Part shown: positions 5,275-18,096 of the stretch, one piece after another
Layout: the number at the start of each line of letters is the position of its first letter
Position numbering within the stretch: position 1 is the stretch's first letter
Source: Sphaerochaetaceae bacterium
GTDB lineage: Bacteria; Spirochaetota; Spirochaetia; Sphaerochaetales; Sphaerochaetaceae
DNA length: 64,000 nt
Assembly: GCA_045598675.1 (NCBI GenBank)
Contig: JAZLMO010000074.1
Span: 1,819 to 65,818 of the forward strand
Direction of reading: 5' to 3'
Position numbers and translations under genes: made by a program
Notes under the pieces: model-generated
What the model was told of the DNA's origin: nothing
What the model saw: the letters and a program-made list of their open reading frames with translations, nothing else
Databases searched by the model: none

Positions 5275-6413
5275 TCCAGGCTGTCTGCAATACTCTTTTT
5301 ATCCATCTCTGTTCCTATGATGCAGAATCTTATGATGCGGTCTCCAACTTCAGGATCCCAGTCTTTGAGAACATCAGGATTTGCAGCAAGGATTTCTTCT
5401 CTCTCGGATTTAGGTGCGCCGGCAATCCATTTGCCATATGGAGTGCAGTACAACTGTCTTCCGGAAGTTTCGAACAGATAGGCCATTCCGGGTTCATCAC
5501 TGAACCAGCAGACGCCCTTGCACCTTATGATATTCTCAGGCCATGTCTTGACAAACTTTCTGAGTTTAGCACGGTTGAAAGGACGCCTTCTTGTATAAAT
5601 GAAAGTACCGATTCCGTATTCGTCTTCATCCGAACCTTCTTCCTTGTGAACGTGATGATGTTCATCGTGTTCATCATAATCGTCATCATCTTCTCCGTTT
5701 TCTGCTTCTTCAAGAGCTTTGCACCAACCGGCGGAAGTATAGACTTTTTCAAAATCAAAAGATGAGGTTGAGAGAATATCCGATACTTCAACATTACCGT
5801 GGTCTGTTTCAATAACTTTTACTCCGGGGTGAAGTGCTTCAATGACTTTTCTGACTTTATTCAGCTGCTCTTCAGTTACAAGATCTGTCTTGTTGATTAC
5901 AAGAGTTGAGCAGAATTCAATCTGCTGAATCAGAAGACTTTCTATATCGTCTTCTTTGATATCATCTTTTCTGAGGAGCTTTTCCCCACCGGCAAACTCT
6001 TCTGCAAGACGGGCAGCATCAACAACTCCTACAACATTATCAAGTTTTCCGTTCTGTACAAGCTCAAGTTCCTGCGCAATGGGCATAGGTTCGCAGACTC
6101 CTGACGCCTCAATCATGATGTAGTCATATCGTCCGCTTTTAATCAGCTTCTCGATGTTCTTTGCCATCTGACTTTTAAGTGTGCAGCAAATACAACCGTT
6201 AGTCAGTGGTACGATATCACTTGTATCCGTAATATTACCACCTTTGGCAATCAGTGAAGCATCTACGTTTACTTCTCCGATATCATTTACTATTACTGCA
6301 ACCTTATAGCCGTTCTGATTATTCAGAACCTTGTTAAGAAGCGTTGTTTTTCCTGCTCCCAGATATCCGCAGAGCAATGTGATAGGTGTCTTACCTTTCA
6401 TAGTATTTTCCAA
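5256..6413 (-). CDS. COG0523 (CobW/YjiA/ZigA-type) metallochaperone GTPase with acidic/His-rich insert
   Basis: P-loop GYLGAGKTTLLN, CxCC metal motif GCICCTL, NKTD, a His/Asp/Glu-rich stretch DDDDYDEHDEHHHVHKEEGSDEDE, and a CobW_C-like end. Confidence 0.85.
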   Translation of the reverse strand: MENTMKGKTPITLLCGYLGAGKTTLLNKVLNNQNGYKVAVIVNDIGEVNVDASLIAKGGNITDTSDIVPLTNGCICCTLKSQMAKNIEKLIKSGRYDYIMIEASGVCEPMPIAQELELVQNGKLDNVVGVVDAARLAEEFAGGEKLLRKDDIKEDDIESLLIQQIEFCSTLVINKTDLVTEEQLNKVRKVIEALHPGVKVIETDHGNVEVSDILSTSSFDFEKVYTSAGWCKALEEAENGEDDDDYDEHDEHHHVHKEEGSDEDEYGIGTFIYTRRRPFNRAKLRKFVKTWPENIIRCKGVCWFSDEPGMAYLFETSGRQLYCTPYGKWIAGAPKSEREEILAANPDVLKDWDPEVGDRIIRFCIIGTEMDKKSIADSLDQNIDF

Positions 6414-6419
6414 ACCCTC

Positions 6420-7610
6420 CTAGTACTTGTTTGCTTTAGAGTAAATGCGGAACATGTCTTCTTCTTTGAGAACCTGGAAATTTCCCAATGTTTTCTTGCC
6501 TTTTGCACTTGCTTTTTCTGCAAGAGCATGAATGTCATCTACATTGAGATTCAGACCGAGCTGATGCAGACCGATTGGCATTCCCATCTTCCTGAAAGTT
6601 TTTTCAAAAGCCTTGATTGTCTTCTTTGCTGCCTTTCTCCTGTTGTTGCATTTGATGGAGAAAACCTTTTCGCCAAGCCATGCAAAACGGTCATAGTTGT
6701 TATGGGCAACATATCTTGCCCAGCTTCCCCAGATGGCAGAAAGACCTGCTCCGTGTGCTACATCGTAAAGAGCGGAAAGTTCATGTTCAAGTCTATGACA
6801 GGCCCAATCTCCTCTGTTGGGAGAACCGAAGTGGTTGAAGTCATTATGCGAAACCGAACCGGCCCACATGAGATTTGCACGGGCATCGTAATTATCCGGC
6901 TGTTTAAGTGCAATCAGAGCATTATCGATGACATTTCTTATCAGTGTTGCGCAATACAAGTCAGTAAGCTCAAGTGCATAACCCTGATGGAAGAAACGTT
7001 CCAATGTGTGCATGATGATATCAACGCTGCCGCTTCCTGTCTGATATTTGGAAACAGTGTAGGTGAGTTCAGGATTCATGAACGCATACTTACATCTGAT
7101 GAGCTCGGAATTCAGACCCGTTTTGTCATAAGGTGTAATCTCATCATTTGTAATAACAGAAGAGTTGCTCATTTCACTGCCTGTGGCAGAAAGAGTAAGA
7201 ACAACTCCTACCGGAATAATCCCGGAAGGTTCTGCTTTATGGGTGTAAATATCCCAGATGTCACAGTCATTGGCTATTCCCAACGCTATTGCCTTTGCAC
7301 TGTCAAGGGCAGATCCTCCTCCTACAGCCAGAACAAAATCAACGTTTTTTCTTTTCCCCAGAGTAATCCCTTTTCTTACAAGTGACAGTCTAGGATTGGG
7401 TTGGGCTCCGCCTAACTCAATAAATTTGATTTTATTTTCCGTAAGGGTCTTTTCAACTCTTTCGAGTAAGCCGCTTTTTACAACTGAACCCGAACCGTAA
7501 TGAATCAAAACTTTTTTTACTCCGGCTTCATGTAGAACCTTTCCTGTTTCAAGTTCAGCATCTTTACCGAAAAAAACATGTGTAGGTGCACAGTATTCAG
7601 AAATAGCCAT
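6420..7610 (-). CDS. Iron-containing (group III) alcohol dehydrogenase, butanol dehydrogenase/YqhD-like
   Basis: GGGSALDSAKAIA NAD(P)-binding motif and His-rich metal site (HxxxH region HRLEHELSALYDVAHGAG). ATG at 7610 is preceded by GAGGTG. The tracked start at 7649 is a likely over-extension. Confidence 0.88.
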   Translation of the reverse strand: MAISEYCAPTHVFFGKDAELETGKVLHEAGVKKVLIHYGSGSVVKSGLLERVEKTLTENKIKFIELGGAQPNPRLSLVRKGITLGKRKNVDFVLAVGGGSALDSAKAIALGIANDCDIWDIYTHKAEPSGIIPVGVVLTLSATGSEMSNSSVITNDEITPYDKTGLNSELIRCKYAFMNPELTYTVSKYQTGSGSVDIIMHTLERFFHQGYALELTDLYCATLIRNVIDNALIALKQPDNYDARANLMWAGSVSHNDFNHFGSPNRGDWACHRLEHELSALYDVAHGAGLSAIWGSWARYVAHNNYDRFAWLGEKVFSIKCNNRRKAAKKTIKAFEKTFRKMGMPIGLHQLGLNLNVDDIHALAEKASAKGKKTLGNFQVLKEEDMFRIYSKANKY

Positions 7611-9118: not shown

Positions 9119-10864
9119 ATGAAAAACAATGCAGATAATAATCTGAAAAAAATGTTTGTATCTCTGAGTTTTATACAGGCTCTTGCCGCTGCAATACCGT
9201 CAATCAATACCCTGATAAGCAGCTTTATCATAGGTAATACACTTGGAACTTCAGGACTTGCGGCAATAGGATTTTCAGGTCCGTATGTTTTTCTTGTTTC
9301 CGCCTTTGCTCAGATGATAGGAATAGGTTCTCAGTTGTTATGCTCAGAATACATAGGTGAAGGTCATAAAGACGGAATAAATATGGCTTTCAGCACCAGT
9401 ATAATTTTCGGAATTGTTGCAGGAGGTTTTCTGGCCCTGATTTCTTCATTGTTTCCTTCCGAGATTTCTTTTGTACTGGGCGCGCAAGATGAGATTCTTG
9501 TAATGACTGCAGACTTTATCAGAGGTTATGCAATCTGCAGTTTCTGTTCGGTTTTTTTTATCTTGTTTCTTTCATATCTTCAGCTTGATCTTGCAAAGTC
9601 AGTATCAACAGCAGCAATTATCATTCAGATTGTTCTGAATATTGTTCTTAATTTATACAATGCAAAAACACTTCACCTGGGAATGTTCGGTGTTGGGCTT
9701 TCATCTTCTGTTTCATCTTTGATTTCCATTTGTATTTCAGCAATGTATCTGGCTTTCAGAAGCAAATTGTTCCGTTTCTCTTTCAGAAGTTTTTCGTTTG
9801 CAGAAATGAAGAAAATTATTTTACTCGGATATAATGCTGCTCTGGTTTTTGTTTGGCGTCTTCTGAGAGACAGAATATTCAATTCTGTTGTGTTCTCTGT
9901 CGGCGGAGCTGTTGCAATGTCTGCATTTGCAATTGCTGCAAATGTTTCAAACAGTATCGGCGGATCATTGCAAGGAGCCGTAGAGGCACCGAGCAGTATG
10001 ATGGCAAGCATTTTTATAGGTGAAAGAGATATCAGTTCTTTGAGAAGACTTCAATTCTATCTTCCTAAAGTTGTGTGGCCGTTCTCTATCTGTTGTTATC
10101 TGACAGTTTTTCTTGCGGCAAAACCGATATGTTTTCTATTTGGGGCAGAGCCTGCAAACATAGCAGTCTATGTTATGATTGTGAGAGCATTTAATCTGTA
10201 TTATATAACCAATCCGATAATTGTAGTAGGACTCAATATTTACAACGCAATGAAAAAGGACAGCGTTGTATGTGTTATGAACTTCCTTTCACTCTTTGTT
10301 TTCTCTTGTATCTTTTTCTATGTCGGAAAGGTTTTCAACAGTCTTTTGATTCTGTTCCTGTTTGCAGTCGGAAATGAATTTCTGCTTATTATTGCTTTCA
10401 AAATATATTATGTTATGAAGGGGCATTCCCTGTTCTCTTTTAATTATGTCTATATTCCAAATGAAATTGCTGTTCCCATGGATTGCAGATTTGAATCAAC
10501 AATATGCAGCGTGGATGATGCCATGAGAACTTCTCAGAGAGTAATTGATTTTTGCAAAGATAAGAGGCTTGAAGAAAAGAAAAGTTATTACTGCGGTCTT
10601 TGTATAGAAGAAGTATGTGTAGATATTCTTTCAAGAAACAGCGGAAAAGAGTGTTCGGTTGATGTCAGGATAATATTTGAAAACAATAATGTTTCTATTA
10701 TGCTCAGAGACAGCTGTAATAAGTTTGATGTATCCGAATGGCTGAAACTGTATGCAAAGGATGATCCTGCAAGGAGTATGGGTCTTAAAATGGTTTCTTC
10801 TCTTTCGAAGACTATGAATTACAATAGTACTTTGGGAATGAATGTTCTGACAATTGAGATCTGA
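9119..10864 (+). CDS. MATE-like 12-TM membrane domain fused to a C-terminal RsbW/SpoIIAB-like (GHKL, HATPase_c_2-type) domain
   Basis: Residues ~1-440 are hydrophobic and MATE-like. The last ~135 aa align by eye to anti-sigma kinase blocks: CGLCIEEVCVDIL (N-box-like, Asn position is Asp), VDVRIIFENNNVSIMLRDSCNKFD, and ARSMGLKMVSSLSKTMNYNSTLGMNVLTIEI. Confidence 0.55.
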   Translation: MKNNADNNLKKMFVSLSFIQALAAAIPSINTLISSFIIGNTLGTSGLAAIGFSGPYVFLVSAFAQMIGIGSQLLCSEYIGEGHKDGINMAFSTSIIFGIVAGGFLALISSLFPSEISFVLGAQDEILVMTADFIRGYAICSFCSVFFILFLSYLQLDLAKSVSTAAIIIQIVLNIVLNLYNAKTLHLGMFGVGLSSSVSSLISICISAMYLAFRSKLFRFSFRSFSFAEMKKIILLGYNAALVFVWRLLRDRIFNSVVFSVGGAVAMSAFAIAANVSNSIGGSLQGAVEAPSSMMASIFIGERDISSLRRLQFYLPKVVWPFSICCYLTVFLAAKPICFLFGAEPANIAVYVMIVRAFNLYYITNPIIVVGLNIYNAMKKDSVVCVMNFLSLFVFSCIFFYVGKVFNSLLILFLFAVGNEFLLIIAFKIYYVMKGHSLFSFNYVYIPNEIAVPMDCRFESTICSVDDAMRTSQRVIDFCKDKRLEEKKSYYCGLCIEEVCVDILSRNSGKECSVDVRIIFENNNVSIMLRDSCNKFDVSEWLKLYAKDDPARSMGLKMVSSLSKTMNYNSTLGMNVLTIEI

Positions 10865-10890
10865 TTCATAGATAAAATGGGGATTCGGAT

Positions 10891-11944: not shown

Positions 11945-13672
11945 ATGGATATTGCAGAGAAAGATTCAAAACTGAAAATATTCTTCACTTACGTAAGACC
12001 CTATAAGTGGGCTTTTATTCTTGATATGTTTCTCTCCGTTGTAATATCGGTTGTAGATTTGGTTTTTCCGTATGTTTCCAGGTGGTCAATGAACACGCTT
12101 TTGCCTCAGGGATTGTTCAGAACATTTTTTGCTGTCATGGGTATAATGTTTGTTTCATACATCATCAGAGCCGTGCTTCAATACTTTGTCACAATAGTCG
12201 GTCACTTTATGGGTACAAGAGTTGAAGCTGATATGAGAAAAGATGTTTTTTCACATATGCAGGGGCTTTCTTTCAGTTTTTTCGACAAGAACAGAACAGG
12301 TGTTTTGCTGAGTCATGTTACAAACGATCTTTTTGAAATAGTTGAGCTTGCCCATCATGGTCCGGAACACCTTATTACATGTTCGCTGACTATCGTGGGT
12401 TCTCTTATTATTCTTGCTACAATCAACTGGAAACTCACTTTGGTTTTGGCTGTTCTTCTTCCTGTCTGCATTGTTTTTTCCTTAAGACAGAGAGTCAGGA
12501 TGACGTCTGCAAACAGAGAGGTTAAGAGAAAGACCGGTGAGATCAACGCGGCCATAGAAAGCGGGATTTCCGGTATTCGTACTTCCAAGGCTTTTGCAAA
12601 CGAGAAGGCTGAAGAAGATAAGTTTCAGATAGTAAATAATCAGTTTAAAAACACTAAAAAATATTTCTACAGAGCCATGGGTCTTTTCAACTGCGGAATT
12701 GAGGCAACAATAGGTATTGCACAGGTTGCAGTTGTTACCGTCGGTGGCTATTTTATTATGAAGGGTTCTATGGATTTCATAGATCTTGTTACATTTACCC
12801 TTTATATTTCCGCGTTTGTTTCTCCTATCAGAAAGTTGGCTCAGTTCATGGAACTGTACAGTCAGGGTTCAAGCGGGTTTGAAAGGTTTGTAAACATAAT
12901 GAAGACCAAACCGGAGATTACTGACTCTCCGGATGCCTATAATCTTGATAAAGTGGACGGTTCAATCAGTTTTGATCATGTTTCATTTTCTTACGGTAAC
13001 GGCAGGAAAGTTCTTGATGATGTCTGTCTTGATATCAGAAAGGGTGAAAAGATTGCGCTTGTAGGTCCTTCAGGTGAAGGTAAGACTACAATGTGCAGTC
13101 TGATACTGAGGTTCTATGATGTCAGTTCGGGTTCAATTTTATTGGACGGAAGAGACATCAGATCAATTAGGCAATCCTGTCTCAGAAGCAACATAGGTAT
13201 CATTCAGCAGGATGTGTTCCTTTATGCCGGTACTGTTATGGAAAACATCCGTTTCGGGAAACCGGATTGTTCGGACGAAGAAGTTGTGAATGCTGCAAAA
13301 CTTGCCGGTATCCATGATGAGATCATGCAGATGCCTGATGGATACAATACAAATGTCGGAGAGCGGGGTGTGTCTCTTTCCGGCGGTCAGAAACAGAGAA
13401 TTTCCATTGCAAGAGTCTTGCTCAAAAATCCTTCTGTGCTTATCCTTGATGAGGCTACTTCTGCATTGGACAGCATTACGGAAGCAAACATTCAGGAAAG
13501 CTTTGATATGCTTTCCAAGGGGAAAACCTGCATTATGATTGCCCATAGACTTTCCACTGTTAAGAATGCTGACAGAATTGCAGTTATTGAGAACGGGAAA
13601 ATTGCTGAACTCGGTACACGTGAAGAGCTTTTGAAGCTTAATGGAAAATACGCAGCTTTGGAGAGAAAATGA
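11945..13672 (+). CDS. ABC exporter, fused permease/ATPase (MsbA/multidrug type)
   Basis: Six-TM N-terminal half, Walker A GPSGEGKTT, signature LSGGQKQRISIAR, Walker B ILDEATSALD. ATG at 11945 is preferred over the tracked 11882, which overlaps galM. Confidence 0.9.
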   Translation: MDIAEKDSKLKIFFTYVRPYKWAFILDMFLSVVISVVDLVFPYVSRWSMNTLLPQGLFRTFFAVMGIMFVSYIIRAVLQYFVTIVGHFMGTRVEADMRKDVFSHMQGLSFSFFDKNRTGVLLSHVTNDLFEIVELAHHGPEHLITCSLTIVGSLIILATINWKLTLVLAVLLPVCIVFSLRQRVRMTSANREVKRKTGEINAAIESGISGIRTSKAFANEKAEEDKFQIVNNQFKNTKKYFYRAMGLFNCGIEATIGIAQVAVVTVGGYFIMKGSMDFIDLVTFTLYISAFVSPIRKLAQFMELYSQGSSGFERFVNIMKTKPEITDSPDAYNLDKVDGSISFDHVSFSYGNGRKVLDDVCLDIRKGEKIALVGPSGEGKTTMCSLILRFYDVSSGSILLDGRDIRSIRQSCLRSNIGIIQQDVFLYAGTVMENIRFGKPDCSDEEVVNAAKLAGIHDEIMQMPDGYNTNVGERGVSLSGGQKQRISIARVLLKNPSVLILDEATSALDSITEANIQESFDMLSKGKTCIMIAHRLSTVKNADRIAVIENGKIAELGTREELLKLNGKYAALERK

Positions 13673-13896
13673 TGAACATTCATGAACAGGTTGAATTACA
13701 GGATTGTCCGCTTTGTCACGGTCCGGCTTTACTGGAAGAAGAAAACGGTTGGTGCTTTTATGTTATGTGTCTGGACTGCGGTTGTCATACTGCAGAAGCC
13801 GCATATAAGACAGAAGAGGATCGCCTGGATGCTGCGCAAAAAGCAGCACATCTGTGGAATATCGGAAAGGTTCTTCCGAGTAATCCCGGGGAGTGA
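13669..13896 (+). CDS. Small zinc-ribbon protein, Lar (restriction alleviation)-like
   Basis: CPLCHG...x20...CLDCGCH four-Cys ribbon followed by AAxLWN, resembling the Lar family. The start overlaps the ABC stop (ATGA) and its stop overlaps the next GTG start. Confidence 0.5.
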   Translation: MMNIHEQVELQDCPLCHGPALLEEENGWCFYVMCLDCGCHTAEAAYKTEEDRLDAAQKAAHLWNIGKVLPSNPGE

Positions 13897-15056
13897 TTTT
13901 GAAGAATTGGATTTGTCCTTTCATAGGGCAGTGCGGCGGCTGCTCAAATCTCAAACCTTATGATGTACAGCTTTCTGATAAGCAAGCTTTGATAGAAGAC
14001 TTGCTTTCTTACTATGGAAAAGTTTGGCCTATCATAGGTGCTGAAAAACCTTTCTATTACCGCAATAAGGTCAATTGGGAATTCTCATGCGACAGACAAG
14101 GTAAACAGTTTGACGGTATATATGCAAAGGACAGTCATTACATTATTCCGGTTGGCAACTGTATGCTTCACGACAAGTCTGCCCAGAGTATAATCAACGA
14201 TGTTGCTTCCTATTTCAGAAAGGAAAACATTCCTTTTTACAACGAGGATTCAAGAGAGGGTTTTCTCCGTCATGTTCTTGTCAGAAGAAGTCCTCTGACA
14301 GATCAGAGTATGGTTTGTCTTGTTACCGGTTTCTGGAAGTTTCCTCACAAAGATTCATTTATAAGTTTTATTACTGAAAAACATCCTGATGTTGTTTCAA
14401 TTATTCAGAACAGAAACAAAGAAAAGACTTCAATGATTTTTTCCGACGAGGAAGACCGTATTCTTTTCGGTAACGGTTACATTGAAGACTATATGTGCAA
14501 CTTGAAATTCAGAATCAGCGGCAGGAGTTTTTCTCAGGTAAATCCATATCAGGCTTCAGAGCTGTATTCTGTTGCAATGGATATGGCTGATTTCAGGGGA
14601 AATGAGAAGGTCATTGATGCTTACTGCGGTACAGGAACAATAGGTCTTATTGCTTCCGATAACGGAGCAGGTGAGGTTATCGGTGTCGAGAGCAATCAGA
14701 GTGCAGTTTCCGATGCAATTGTGAATGCTAAGCTGAACGGTATTACAAATGCCCGTTTTATCTGTGCTGAAGCTTCTTCTTATCTTAAGCAAATGGCCAG
14801 GGATAAGCAGAATGTTGATGTAGTCTTTTTAGATCCTCCCAGAAACGGTACGGATGAACGTTTTCTGTCTTCTGTTTTTAAGCTTAATCCTAAGAAAATA
14901 ATATACATTTCATGTAATCCTTTTACCTTAAACAGGGATTTGCGATACATAGTACATTTCTCAGATTACAAAGTTCGTGCCATCCAACCTGTAGACATGT
15001 TTCCTCAAACCTCTCACCTTGAGACTGTCGTTATGATGTCAAGGATAGGTAACTAA
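13893..15056 (+). CDS. 23S rRNA (uracil-C5)-methyltransferase, RumA/RlmCD (TrmA) family, without N-terminal TRAM domain
   Basis: Fe-S Cys cluster CPFIGQCGGC, SAM motif DAYCGTGTIGL, catalytic region DPPRNG...YISCNP. GTG start. Confidence 0.85.
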   Translation: MILKNWICPFIGQCGGCSNLKPYDVQLSDKQALIEDLLSYYGKVWPIIGAEKPFYYRNKVNWEFSCDRQGKQFDGIYAKDSHYIIPVGNCMLHDKSAQSIINDVASYFRKENIPFYNEDSREGFLRHVLVRRSPLTDQSMVCLVTGFWKFPHKDSFISFITEKHPDVVSIIQNRNKEKTSMIFSDEEDRILFGNGYIEDYMCNLKFRISGRSFSQVNPYQASELYSVAMDMADFRGNEKVIDAYCGTGTIGLIASDNGAGEVIGVESNQSAVSDAIVNAKLNGITNARFICAEASSYLKQMARDKQNVDVVFLDPPRNGTDERFLSSVFKLNPKKIIYISCNPFTLNRDLRYIVHFSDYKVRAIQPVDMFPQTSHLETVVMMSRIGN

Positions 15057-15111
15057 CCACTACCGTATTTCTTTTACAGTAAAGAATTAACTCAATATTT
15101 CGTTGCTGAAC

Positions 15112-15259
15112 ATTGTGTAAATTTTTAACAGCTATTTTCTCTTTGTGGGTAGAAGTCCAAGTTCTCAGATTGGGGACTGTGTTTGTAGCGATGATGTTTT
15201 GAGGTACTGTGCTTGTAGAAATGATGTCAGAGCATAGGGGAGTTTGTAGAAACAATGTC
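15112..15259 (+). repeat. Left array: 4-5 direct copies of a 16-17 bp motif (TTTGTrGrwA..ATGTC), phased 30-40 bp apart
   Basis: Copies read directly: ATTGTGTAAATTTTTAAC 15112 (degenerate), TTTGTGGGTAGAAGTC 15142-15157, TTTGTAGCGATGATGTT 15182-15198, CTTGTAGAAATGATGTC 15212-15228, TTTGTAGAAACAATGTC 15243-15259. Copies 3 and 4 share an ACTGTG prefix (about a 30-bp tandem unit). Confidence 0.85.
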
Positions 15260-15390
15260 AATTGTTTCTTAGTAGTTAAGATATTTAAGTGTTTTACTTG
15301 ATTTTTTTTCAACTTAAAAAATAAATGAAATGTTATCTGCTTTCTTTTGTATTACTTATGTACTATCATTTCAATACATGTGGAGGATGT

Positions 15391-16323
15391 ATGTCTGTAT
15401 TTGAAAAGCATGAATTAATAAAAAAAAGTCTGTTTTCAAGTCACAAAAATGAGAATTTCTTAATAGAAGTTGAGAATATTCTTGCTGAATATGAAGACCA
15501 TTTTGAAGATGTTCCAAAAAAACTAATGACTGAACTTGTAACCAAATATAAGGTTGATTTTCCAAAAAAGTTTAAAAATGAAACTAAAACGTTAGTTCGT
15601 AGATACTGGAAAAGTATTTTGGGTGATATGAAATCAACTAAATCCGAAGAAAAGCAGATTGAATGTCTTGTTTCTTTGTTGTCAGTTACAGAAGAGGATG
15701 CTCATACCATTGTTTTTGAAGAGAAAAGTGCGGTTGTAAATGCATTTGTACAAGATCTCCTTTCAGATAGAAGATATTCTCCAGAAGATGAAGAAAGATT
15801 AAATCAGTTAGCTAACGATTTAAATGTTTCTTTGGATTTTAAGGATAAACAGAATTTAGAGAAATTTAGAATTCTATGGGACATTGAGAATGGAAATCTT
15901 CCAGTTGTGAATGATACCGATATCACGATTCAAAAGTCTGAAAATGTTTACTTTAAAGATGAGACAAACTGGTATGAAGATCGTCAAACTACAACGCGAG
16001 TATCCTATAGCGGACCATCGGTAAGGATTAAGATTTGTAAAGGTGTATATTACAGGATAGGCTCATGTTCACCTAAAAAAGTCACAACAACAGAAAAAAA
16101 ATTAATTGATACCGGTACTTTGTATTTGACAAATAAACGATTAATATTTGTCGGCTCTAAATCAACAAAAACAATATATTTGAATAAGATTTTAAGTATT
16201 GAACCATACGTTGATGGAGTTGAAATAGTCAAAGAAAGTGGAAAATTTCCACTTTTGAAATTCAGTAGTGGTGATGCTGAAGTCTTTTCGTTGTTACTGA
16301 CCAAAATTGTGAATATGGAGTAA
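15391..16323 (+). CDS. Hypothetical protein: helical N-terminal region + C-terminal PH/GRAM-like (bacterial PH) domain
   Basis: ATG at 15391 is preceded by GGAGGA. The tracked start at 15325 is a likely over-extension. The C-terminus (GTLYLTNKRLIFVGSKSTKTIYLNKILSIEPYVDGVEIV) has the classic bPH/GRAM pattern. No enzymatic motif was recognised. Very AT-rich. Confidence 0.6.
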   Translation: MSVFEKHELIKKSLFSSHKNENFLIEVENILAEYEDHFEDVPKKLMTELVTKYKVDFPKKFKNETKTLVRRYWKSILGDMKSTKSEEKQIECLVSLLSVTEEDAHTIVFEEKSAVVNAFVQDLLSDRRYSPEDEERLNQLANDLNVSLDFKDKQNLEKFRILWDIENGNLPVVNDTDITIQKSENVYFKDETNWYEDRQTTTRVSYSGPSVRIKICKGVYYRIGSCSPKKVTTTEKKLIDTGTLYLTNKRLIFVGSKSTKTIYLNKILSIEPYVDGVEIVKESGKFPLLKFSSGDAEVFSLLLTKIVNME

Positions 16324-16327
16324 AAAA

Positions 16328-17053
16328 GTGAGGAAAAGGCTTTTTGAAATAATTGAGACCTCAAATGGAGACGATAAAGCAAGTTCTATTTACGATGTCT
16401 TTGTAATCTTAACAATTATTTTCAGTATTATTCCTTTAGCATTTAAAAACACAAATAGGTTTTTAGTAATTGTTGACAGAATAACAGTAATCATTTTTAT
16501 TGTTGATTATGTTTTACGCCTCATTACTGCGGATTTAAAACTGAAAAAAGGAGTAATATCCTTCTTTATTTATCCGTTTTCAATAATGGCAATAATTGAT
16601 TTATTTAGTATTCTGCCGTCATTTTGTGTTATTTCATCCAGTTATAAATTGTTAAGATTGTTAAGAATGTTTAGAGCCTTTAGAGTTCTGAGAGCTGCTA
16701 AAATGCTCAGGTATTCTAAGAATTTTTTAATTATTTCTGATGTAATAAAAGTGCAACGCAAATCATTAAGTGCAGTGTGTATGTTAGCTGTAGCTTATAT
16801 ATTTGTTTCTGCATTGCTTATTTTTAATATTGAGCCAGAAAGTTTTGAAAGTTTTTTTGATGCGATCTACTGGGCAACTGTCAGTCTTACCACAGTTGGT
16901 TATGGAGATATATATCCAATAACTACTGCGGGAAGAGTAATTACAATGATTTCATCTATTTTTGGTATAGCAATTATTGCCCTTCCTGCCGGTATTATCA
17001 CCGCTGGGTATATGAATAGAATAAATCAAGATACCAATGAAAAAGAAGAATGA
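16328..17053 (+). CDS. Voltage-gated-type K+ channel (6-TM, S4 arginine ladder, TVGYGD filter), no cytosolic regulatory domain
   Basis: S4 segment LLRLLRMFRAFRVLRAAKMLR has R/K every third residue. The selectivity filter is TTVGYGD. GTG start 5 nt after the upstream stop. Confidence 0.85.
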   Translation: MRKRLFEIIETSNGDDKASSIYDVFVILTIIFSIIPLAFKNTNRFLVIVDRITVIIFIVDYVLRLITADLKLKKGVISFFIYPFSIMAIIDLFSILPSFCVISSSYKLLRLLRMFRAFRVLRAAKMLRYSKNFLIISDVIKVQRKSLSAVCMLAVAYIFVSALLIFNIEPESFESFFDAIYWATVSLTTVGYGDIYPITTAGRVITMISSIFGIAIIALPAGIITAGYMNRINQDTNEKEE

Positions 17054-17082: not shown

Positions 17083-18096
17083 ATGAATAAGCAACTTCAA
17101 ATCAGAAACAGTACGGTAGATTTTCTCATGTTTACACGTGATGCCAAAGATGACGGTATTGAAGTCAGAGTTCAGGACAATGATGTTTGGCTAACTCAAA
17201 TGGCTATCTCCAAATTATTTGATGTGGACAGAAGTGTTGTCACAAAGCATCTGAAGAATGTTTTTGAGACAGGAGAGCTGGATGTAAATTCAGTATGTGC
17301 AAATTTTGCACAAACTGCTGATGATGGGAAAACTTACAATTATAAGTTCTATTCTCTTGATGCCATTATTGCCGTTGGTTATAGAGTAAATTCCGTCAGA
17401 GCTACTCAGTTCAGACAGTGGGCAACCAAAGTTTTGTCTACATTCAGCAAACAGGGTTATGTCCTGGATAAGAACCGTCTTGAAAACGGACAGATATTTG
17501 ATGAAGAGTATTTTGATCATCTTATTTCTGAAATTCAGGAAATAAGAGCAAGTGAGAGAAGATTCTACCAGAAGATAACAGATATCTATTCAACAGCTGT
17601 AGATTACTCGGTTGACAGTGTTATTACACAGAATTTCTTTGCAACGGTTCAGAATAAGATGCATTATGCAGTTCACGGAAACACTGCTGCGGAAATGATT
17701 GTTCAGAGAGCTGACCATAAGAAAACAAATATGGGTTTAACTTCATGGAAGAATGCACCGAACGGAAAGATTGTTAAAGCGGATGTTTCTGTTGCTAAAA
17801 ACTATCTTTCTCATGATGAAATGTCTGAACTTAACGAAATAGTTACAATGTATCTTGATTATGCAACCCGACAGGCAAAGCGTCATATTCCTATGACAAT
17901 GGCTGACTGGGCAGAAAAACTTGATGCATTTCTGAAGTTCAATGATGCAGAAGTATTACAGGACAAGGGAAAGGTTACTGCTGAAATAGCCAAGGCTTTT
18001 GCAGAAAGTGAATTTGAAAAGTATAGGGTAATTCAGGATGCCTCTTATCAGAGTGATTTTGACCGTTTGATTTCTGAGACACAGTCTGAGAAATAA
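17083..18096 (+). CDS. RhuM family virulence/DNA-binding protein
   Basis: Near-canonical RhuM sequence blocks: IRNSTVDFLMFT..., YNYKFYSLDAIIAVGYRVNSVRATQFRQWAT, IRASERRFYQKITDIY and KMHYAVHGNTAAE. Confidence 0.85.
   Translation: MNKQLQIRNSTVDFLMFTRDAKDDGIEVRVQDNDVWLTQMAISKLFDVDRSVVTKHLKNVFETGELDVNSVCANFAQTADDGKTYNYKFYSLDAIIAVGYRVNSVRATQFRQWATKVLSTFSKQGYVLDKNRLENGQIFDEEYFDHLISEIQEIRASERRFYQKITDIYSTAVDYSVDSVITQNFFATVQNKMHYAVHGNTAAEMIVQRADHKKTNMGLTSWKNAPNGKIVKADVSVAKNYLSHDEMSELNEIVTMYLDYATRQAKRHIPMTMADWAEKLDAFLKFNDAEVLQDKGKVTAEIAKAFAESEFEKYRVIQDASYQSDFDRLISETQSEK

Follow-up and report, generated by a model that had tools for sequence, protein, structure and literature searches.

A minimal voltage-gated K+ channel and a soluble PH/GRAM-like partner encoded side by side on an acquired islet of a Sphaerochaetaceae-like chromosome, with suggestive links to phage defence

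The 64,000-nucleotide stretch of DNA analyzed here (the window; Sphaerochaetaceae bacterium, NCBI GenBank assembly GCA_045598675.1, contig JAZLMO010000074.1, positions 1,819 to 65,818 of the forward strand) carries two adjacent genes, the first encoding a soluble protein, hereafter the partner, and the second a minimal voltage-gated K+ (Kv) channel (Table 1). A previous inspection of the letters and their open reading frames (the sequence-only reading) had singled the two genes out as a candidate sensor-plus-channel module resembling RexAB of phage lambda; its descriptions of both proteins proved accurate overall, and the observation was largely correct. The partner gene begins at an ATG with GGAGG eight bases before it, the channel gene at a GTG with GGAG 7 nt upstream, and only 4 nt separate the TAA of the first gene from the GTG of the second, confirming the close spacing reported before and shortening it from 5 nt. 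The start that yields a partner of 310 amino acids is correct, as its N-terminus, MSVFEK, aligned with the N-termini of all homologues, and a longer open reading frame of 332 amino acids was rejected on that ground. Both genes share an unusual composition, with a G+C content of 0.309 for the partner and 0.306 for the channel, against 0.393 for rlmD, 0.376 for the RhuM-family gene and 0.385 for a glyoxalase gene, and the islet ranks second lowest in G+C among 608 sliding windows of equal size.

Table 1. Features of the gene pair and its immediate surroundings, in window coordinates.
Feature	Position (nt)	Strand	Residues	Basis or remark
rlmD-like 23S rRNA methyltransferase gene	13893–15056	+		Pfam tRNA_U5-meth_tr; homologues named RlmD of Sphaerochaetaceae; left boundary of the islet and last gene syntenic with related genomes
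AT-rich spacer, 334 nt	15057–15390	.		G+C content 0.314; presumed promoter region
Partner protein, 310 amino acids, soluble	15391–16323	+		Open reading frame, ribosome-binding site, no hydrophobic segment
Partner, Tic110/TerB-like helical repeats	15445–15888	+	~19–166	Family profile
Partner, GRAM/PH-like beta domain and C-terminal helix	15946–16320	+	~186–310	AlphaFold (AF2) model, Foldseek
Channel, minimal six-helix Kv, 241 amino acids	16328–17053	+		Pfam, PDB relatives, PHROG 7872
Channel, S4	16649–16711	+	108–128	
Channel, selectivity filter TTVGYGD	16889–16909	+	188–194	
RhuM-family gene, 29 nt 3' of the channel	17083–18096	+		Pfam Virulence_RhuM, 1.7e-106

The channel displays every sequence-level defining feature of the Kv family. 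It matches Pfam Ion_trans (PF00520) over residues 20 to 229 with an expectation value (E) of 3.5e-26 (92 bits against a cut-off of 25) and Ion_trans_2 at 7.7e-17, and its best solved relatives, KCNQ2/4/5 and the Kv1.2 paddle chimera, align from S1 to the end of S6 at E 1e-23. Arginine or lysine occupies every third position of S4 (110, 113, 116, 119, 122, 125 and 128), and all seven positions are arginine or lysine in 71/71 members of the clade examined, viral ones included; the filter is likewise invariant across the 71 relatives except for V190M in two of them. With only about 12 residues past S6, the protein has no RCK or other cytosolic domain, and the bare six-transmembrane (6-TM) channel with S4, TTVGYGD and no RCK domain that the sequence-only reading had described is borne out by the Pfam matches, the PDB relatives and the end of S6. 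Judged from these sequences, the invariance of S4 charges and filter suggests that the channels of this clade work and are under selection, and a functional, K+-selective and voltage-gated channel is the best explanation for the gene in the window. A match to the NCBIfam hyperpolarization-activated channel is weak (47 bits against a cut-off of 300). The match to PHROG 7872, annotated as 'unknown function', spans the whole length at 5.1e-40, so phage copies of this channel type have already been catalogued. A neighbor-joining tree of the channels is star-like, with viral copies interspersed and the three partner-linked channels forming no resolved clade, and the channel side of the phylogeny yields no inference on single or multiple origins.

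The partner has no hydrophobic segment (maximum KD19 0.92), and its fold was approached through an AlphaFold (AF2) model built with 34 homologues (mean predicted local distance difference test score, pLDDT, of 89). The model predicts a helical half (residues 19 to 166), a beta-rich half (186 to 291) and a terminal helix (296 to 309), in which strands 227 to 291 and the terminal helix would form a PH-type region with pLDDT above 90 and additional strands at residues 186 to 224 would precede this PH-like core. Foldseek searches of the PDB returned almost only PH, GRAM and PTB domains, such as the Lam6 PH-like domain, MTMR6 and Rtt106, with probability 1.0 and modest E values of about 1e-3. Pfam points in the same direction from beneath its gathering thresholds: over residues 234 to 276 the partner scores 16.9 bits with GRAM (threshold 23.6), 19.7 with Vps36_ESCRT-II (24.1) and 16.5 with PH-GRAM_MTMR6 (23.5), with E values of 1e-3 to 6e-3 for GRAM and Vps36-GLUE, and its sequence includes G-x-L-Y-L-T-N-K-R-L-I-F, a pattern characteristic of GRAM strands. 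A 'Bacterial PH domain protein' is among the entries of the viral library. These results support the assignment of the partner as PH/GRAM-like at the level of the predicted fold, not as a member of a curated family, and uphold the C-terminal PH/GRAM pattern noticed previously, with Pfam scores that stay sub-threshold.

The helical N-terminal half had also been recognized correctly, but not its supposed want of any recognizable motif, since a profile of the partner family aligns with two repeat units of the Tic110 helical repeats (PDB 4BM5) at E 1.4e-16. Relatives of the partner exceed the cut-off of Pfam Tic110 (PF16940), reaching 3.6e-19, and also touch ARMH5, while TerB (PF05099) is mostly weak among them and reaches its cut-off in few (P0007, P0338; family members and loci of this analysis carry P and L numbers). 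The window partner alone matches neither Pfam Tic110 nor TerB, and lacks one repeat of about 50 amino acids that is present in the usual 360-amino-acid form. Similarity to Tic110 repeats in a bacterial and phage family may bear on the ancestry of those repeats.

The family itself is large, mostly from Bacteroidota, and without a name. A word-indexed search found 36 relatives, and an exhaustive profile search, with clusters at 50% identity, recovered 904 cluster representatives at E≤1e-30 and 6120 at E≤1e-3; the partner has no match in PADLOC, PHROGs or NCBIfam. One to three C-terminal FtsK-gamma winged-helix DNA-binding domains are present in P0373, P0285 and P0337, and N-terminal signal or transmembrane anchors in P0287, P0303, P0306 and P0338; these anchors suggest that the module sits at the cytoplasmic face of the membrane. 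Among the long family members, fusions are to FtsK-gamma domains or membrane anchors and none joins partner and channel. Together, the FtsK-gamma fusions and the anchors hint that the family acts close to the membrane and may have to do with DNA.

The pair is best explained as a horizontally acquired operon placed just downstream of rlmD in a Sphaerochaetaceae-like chromosome. Homologues of the rlmD product mark the host as related to Sphaerochaeta. In two related loci, one with an RlmD 93% identical (L179) and one 80% identical (L180), the genes that lead up to this site are arranged as in the window: MatE, aldose epimerase, MFS, ABC, Lar and RlmD. DNA similarity between the window and L180 stops at 15035, the 3' end of rlmD, and the L179 contig ends exactly at rlmD. 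In L180, a large serine recombinase of 561 amino acids (9190 to 10875) starts 23 nt past rlmD; the site 3' of rlmD therefore receives mobile DNA, and this side of the gene looks like an integration hot spot. The sequence-only reading had envisaged a mobile cassette bracketed by repeats, of which the acquired islet stands, on the grounds of G+C content and the break in synteny, and the bracketing repeats do not. A repeat search between 13 and 20 kb gave only short, imperfect pairs with non-collinear arms at the level of chance, the two best inverted pairs (15138/18134 and 15208/18172) lying out of mirrored order, and blastn-short between the two flanking intergenic regions found no match longer than 10 exact bases; repeat-bracketed cassette and att sites were accordingly rejected. 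No tRNA or Rfam element that could serve as an integration target was found at the islet, the sole Rfam match, K_chan_RES (26 bits against a cut-off of 51), being rejected as coding-sequence similarity in the pore region. A scan for promoters and terminators with a consensus promoter performed no better than on shuffled sequence. A Lar-type 'restriction alleviation' gene of 75 amino acids (13669 to 13896) overlaps the start of rlmD by 4 nt, and appears to be core, not prophage-derived, because its position is kept in both L179 and L180.

The partnership of the two genes was followed across genomes. Close relatives of the partner (65% identity) are only two in 5.8 billion proteins, L001 and L002, and both adjoin a Kv channel of the same clade. 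In L001 the order is partner, a 77-amino-acid Ada-type zinc protein and channel; in L002 partner and channel converge, and the zinc protein comes after the channel. Apart from the pair itself, its surroundings in the window, in L001 and in L002 have nothing in common, and the subfamily of 310 amino acids thus keeps its channel in 3/3 cases despite different flanks and rearrangement. The RhuM-family gene downstream of the channel matches PADLOC candidate PDC-S05 at 8.8e-151; given a G+C content unlike that of the pair and its absence from L001 and L002, we treat it as context, probably not part of the pair. Among more distant partners (34 to 42% identity), a Kv gene overlaps the end of the partner gene, stop codon included, by 11 nt (L008, L072) or lies 75 nt beyond it (L112), such that the order partner then channel, with an overlap or a gap of at most 75 nt, recurs in four divergent lineages including that of the window. 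The L072 'channel' (6235 to 6615), which follows a partner homologue of 436 amino acids, has only 126 amino acids and keeps S1, the TVGYGD filter and S6 without S2 to S5; it may be a decayed gene or a sensorless pore. Looser arrangements also occur, with one membrane tetratricopeptide repeat (TPR) protein between partner and Kv in L026 and L027, and with the channel 2.4 kb away on the other strand, nuclease genes in between, in L009, L020 and L075; the related L010 has the same neighbours and no channel.

Linkage was counted over 82 distinct loci of the full family, the window excluded; downstream sequence of 800 nt or more is available for 58 of them, and 2 kb or more on one side for 56. A Kv gene adjoins a member of the partner family in five distinct loci other than the window and lies within 2.5 kb in four more. 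If the chance rate of Kv genes is at most 1%, these 9 of the 56 loci with at least 2 kb of flank correspond to a binomial P of at most 5e-9, in a sample whose loci are not all independent and represent about seven lineages. Kv channels are the second most frequent family of partner neighbours, after a membrane TPR/DUF3761 protein, and the Kv-adjacent partners cluster in one part of the partner tree. The two genes are thus a genuine mobile two-gene module. In Flavobacteriia, Kv genes belong to a conserved set of three, together with genes for a membrane protein (about 420 amino acids) and a lipoprotein (about 305 to 330 amino acids), neither product above a Pfam threshold (L009, 9513 to 12774; L020, 6809 to 10122; L026, 1977 to 5038; L027, 2010 to 5019), and L026 and L027 have a stand-alone TerB-domain protein just upstream.

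The channel clade circulates on temperate phages of anaerobes. A tblastn search against cultured phages identified a channel 63% identical to that of the window in Dulem virus 33 (L141, PP511792, 5672 to 9514), a circular temperate phage genome of 40 kb in which an XRE repressor gene ends inside the channel gene; four small genes come next, and then the integrase gene. A scan of IMG/VR with exact peptides of the window channel added 28 viral loci (L143 to L170), with channels at 48 to 65% identity. In 23 of 29 viral Kv loci, the gene directly upstream on the same strand encodes an XRE-type helix-turn-helix protein, seven of which contain an S24 peptidase domain and are thus CI/LexA-like. Downstream, in the 26 loci with such a gene, large serine recombinases (8), Abi_2 proteins (7) and tyrosine integrases (4) were found, and the Abi_2 protein of L164 matches PADLOC AbiD at 4e-33. 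In many of these temperate phages the order of the lysogeny module is Cro-like protein, CI/XRE repressor, Kv, AbiD or zinc-ribbon protein, and serine or tyrosine recombinase, and the slot behind the repressor is the position that rexAB occupies in lambda. Given this placement directly behind a CI-type repressor, the phage channel is presumably expressed in lysogens. In the literature we found such a gene noted only once, for a prophage of Oenococcus sicerae with a putative Kv gene (PMC9867325). The sequence-only reading had held that bacterial Kv channels are normally singletons of the core genome, a premise that was not confirmed, the clade being abundantly phage-borne.

Three further relatives of the channel, two chromosomal and one on a plasmid, lie in variable regions. 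In one chromosome (L140), a DISARM DrmD-like helicase (4e-116), a WYL protein and RhuM are nearby, the last 3 kb from the channel; in the other (L139), an AAA ATPase, an NS_2 endonuclease and HxsD/radical-SAM genes are near the channel; and on a rumen Clostridia plasmid (L142), DUF4011, DUF4236 and WYL genes accompany it. Several other proteins recur beside the channel. DUF4236 is found directly upstream of Kv or one gene away from it in the viral contig L143 (3618 to 4958), L142 (2935 to 4281) and Polaribacter L020 (7624 to 7884), and channels are likewise accompanied by membrane proteins with a zinc ribbon (L139, L157, L159) and by Ada-type zinc proteins of small size (L001, L002, L142); all three kinds could be alternative channel partners.

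Phages carry the partner family too. Full-length members are present in the T4-like contigs L171, L172 and L174, and in a Mu-like phage (L173) one stands directly after the repressor. More distant relatives, in which the C-terminal domain is the common part, are found one gene after the repressor in Bordetella phage vB_BaM-IFTN1 and between the repressor/ImmA pair and the integrase in Lactobacillus phage JNU_P4, an arrangement repeated by distant C-terminal-domain relatives in L176 and L178. Some of the phage homologues are annotated 'TerB family'. On phages, the channel and partner families travel separately. In another viral contig (L175, 1167 to 5612), genes for a Ser/Thr kinase, a vWA protein and a PP2C phosphatase precede that of a distantly homologous PH-like protein that has a zinc ribbon at its N-terminus, an arrangement that resembles the TerY-P triad, which has been reported as a defence system.

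We propose that the pair is an acquired operon with a plausible role in phage exclusion, a joint reading to which we assign a probability of roughly 45% and whose basis is association. The association is with the repressor slot, AbiD, DrmD, WYL and RhuM, and it makes a defence-type role of the pair plausible. Starting from the observed gene structure, channel features, recurrent linkage and mobile, phage and defence-island surroundings, and from the partner fold supported by the model, a mechanism can be sketched. The product of the first gene would be a cytoplasmic, membrane-proximal adaptor that most likely binds or regulates the channel, and the channel would be expressed constitutively and closed at the resting potential. 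An infecting phage that perturbs the membrane could then move the S4 sensor and open the pore, and the efflux of K+ would arrest the infection or block its establishment, with the partner tuning the gating or adding a cytosolic cue. We infer the physical interaction of the two proteins, the direction of gating and the anti-phage effect that this scheme supposes.

Several observations weigh against a phage-exclusion role of the pair. Kv genes are absent from the vicinity of the partner in 47 of the 56 loci with at least 2 kb of flank, and hundreds of channels at 60 to 69% identity occur without a partner. A profile search found no PH-like partner in the phage Kv loci, and because these phage copies and the hundreds of other relatives manage without it, the partner is not required by the channel. 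The linkage, though real, is facultative, and as phage channels and most partner loci stand alone, the pair is an occasional combination, not an obligate system; of the mobile pair with a dedicated partner that had been suggested, the linked mobile unit is retained, on G+C content and the L001 and L002 flanks, and obligate pairing is not. Co-transcription is not obligatory either, since the genes converge in L002, and some partner loci lie among housekeeping genes (L004, L007, L008). Neither protein matched any family of the PADLOC-DB v2 hidden Markov models at E≤0.1. Homology to RexAB was rejected, as the partner family aligns with lambda RexA at a probability of 0.1% (hhalign, E 0.63) and the channel with lambda RexB at E 89 (BLASTP). 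Moreover, channel biophysics suggests that a K+-selective pore would drain K+ and drive the membrane potential towards the K+ equilibrium potential (E_K), or clamp it near that value, without a depolarization in the style of RexB, and the earlier supposition of depolarization is thus set aside. Lastly, the association amounts to guilt by neighbourhood among loci that are in part phylogenetically non-independent. What the sequence-only reading had called a RexAB-like defence module keeps, in consequence, its phage and defence neighbourhood and loses Rex homology and any PADLOC match, and its interpretation overall is reduced to a mobile module with suggestive links to phage defence.

Among the alternatives, the one that fares best, although we consider it somewhat unlikely, is that a K+ channel and its cytoplasmic auxiliary subunit serve ion homeostasis, control of the membrane potential or signalling, with no part in phage exclusion. 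The partner would in that case make gating responsive to a metal, a lipid or a protein, by analogy with the eukaryotic Kv-beta or KChIP subunits. The tight coupling of the genes would suit such a role, as would the strict conservation of sensor and filter, which indicates a normal gated channel, not a toxin, and the likeness of the helical repeats to TerB and Tic110, both scaffold or metal-associated folds. In L008 the pair is flanked by purine-biosynthesis genes on one side and sugar-kinase genes on the other, and the partner family at large is mostly chromosomal in Bacteroidota and often found among metabolic genes. A homeostatic role leaves unexplained, however, why the channel is so frequently positioned between repressor and integrase and beside AbiD, why the partner family recurs in the same repressor-integrase slot, and why the pair has foreign G+C content and has moved among unrelated contexts.

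It is rather improbable that the two are independent cargo genes whose adjacency reflects co-residence in islands and not a two-component system. Each family is far commoner without the other, the convergent orientation in L002 speaks for separate genes, and so do the distant, opposite-strand channels of L009, L020 and L075 and the channel-free L010. Cargo genes thrown together by chance would, in contrast, hardly be expected to keep the same order at such close quarters in the window, L008, L072 and L112, nor would the 310-amino-acid subfamily retain its channel throughout rearrangement and changing flanks; the unusual G+C content is, moreover, common to both genes and not shared by the neighbouring RhuM gene. 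A toxin-antitoxin-like addiction module, in which unregulated opening would be toxic, the partner would neutralize it and the mobile element would be stabilized, fits the arrangement seen, an operon of two genes on mobile DNA in which a small soluble protein is encoded ahead of a membrane protein, but is very improbable, because phage-borne and most chromosomal channels stand without a partner, so that the channel is not intrinsically lethal, and because the intact voltage sensor argues for regulated opening.

To our knowledge, the role of voltage-gated K+ channels in bacteria has not been established, and KvAP and KvLm have been used mainly as structural models. In the literature, we found no description of this pair, nor of Kv channels as defence genes; the channel type was already known, and the partner and the habitual placement of the channel in phage immunity regions are undescribed in the literature that we found. 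One clade of minimal Kv channels rides temperate phages in the classical slot of exclusion genes, often beside AbiD, and in some lineages the channel has a dedicated soluble partner. An extension of the phage-exclusion reading, which we regard as unlikely, is that Kv channels of this clade are widespread prophage-encoded effectors, expressed in lysogens and acting against phages, whose voltage sensor would detect the membrane perturbation by an incoming phage and to which accessory proteins (the Tic110-repeat/PH-like partner, DUF4236 and zinc-ribbon proteins) would add inputs. If true, this would be the first time that a physiological role is assigned to a prokaryotic Kv channel, and the first case of an auxiliary subunit for one; if the association is positional only, the locus holds an ordinary accessory channel gene and an uncharacterized neighbour. 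In addition, an unnamed family of about 900 clusters, whose members join Tic110-like repeats to a PH/GRAM-like domain, is found repeatedly in the immunity regions of phages; it is of interest for phage biology as well as for the ancestry of Tic110-type repeats. These observations make the purpose of prokaryotic Kv channels open to simple experiment.

Among known families, PHROG 7872 comprises the same channel type, with no annotation of a position in the lysogeny module or of a partner. KvLm of Listeria monocytogenes and KvAP of Aeropyrum pernix are equally bare S1-S6 proteins of about 240 to 295 amino acids with an S4 sensor, TVGYGD and no cytosolic domain, and identity to the Listeria region is only about 29%. 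We know of no partner protein and no mobile or phage context described for either of them. KvLm is a 6-TM channel activated by depolarization (PMC2151562). The C-terminal half of the partner is predicted to share with the GRAM/PH-like domains of Lam6/Ysp2, MTMR6 and the Vps36 GLUE domain a beta-sandwich and a C-terminal helix, but differs from them in its sub-threshold Pfam GRAM/Vps36 scores and the extra strands at residues 186 to 224. Tic110 is a chloroplast inner-envelope translocon protein without a PH domain; two of its repeat units align with the family profile, although the window partner has lost one repeat. Bacterial PH-like domains (PHb) are already known (PMC2817789), and the partner has no match among the bPH families.

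The comparison with RexAB of lambda and its counterpart gp30/gp31 of mycobacteriophage Sbash is one of function and position only, and the positional part is true of the relatives, not of the window. RexB and Sbash gp31 are four-transmembrane (4-TM) proteins, and RexA and gp30 carry DUF4747 (PMC6426596), in contrast to the present pair with its 6-TM K+-selective Kv channel, equipped with a voltage sensor of its own, and its Tic110-repeat/GRAM partner; a likeness of Sbash gp31 to a K+ channel was rejected, the protein being described as 4-TM and RexB-like (PMC6426596). Unlike rexAB, the pair in the window follows rlmD with no adjoining repressor, and so has no place in an immunity region there. 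In the logic proposed for RexAB-type systems, a channel opened by a sensor causes the infection to abort (PMC6426596), and the likeness, by analogy, is that in both cases a soluble protein and a membrane channel are encoded side by side with the soluble gene first, and that the relatives of the channel hold the rexAB slot, downstream of the repressor and on the same strand.

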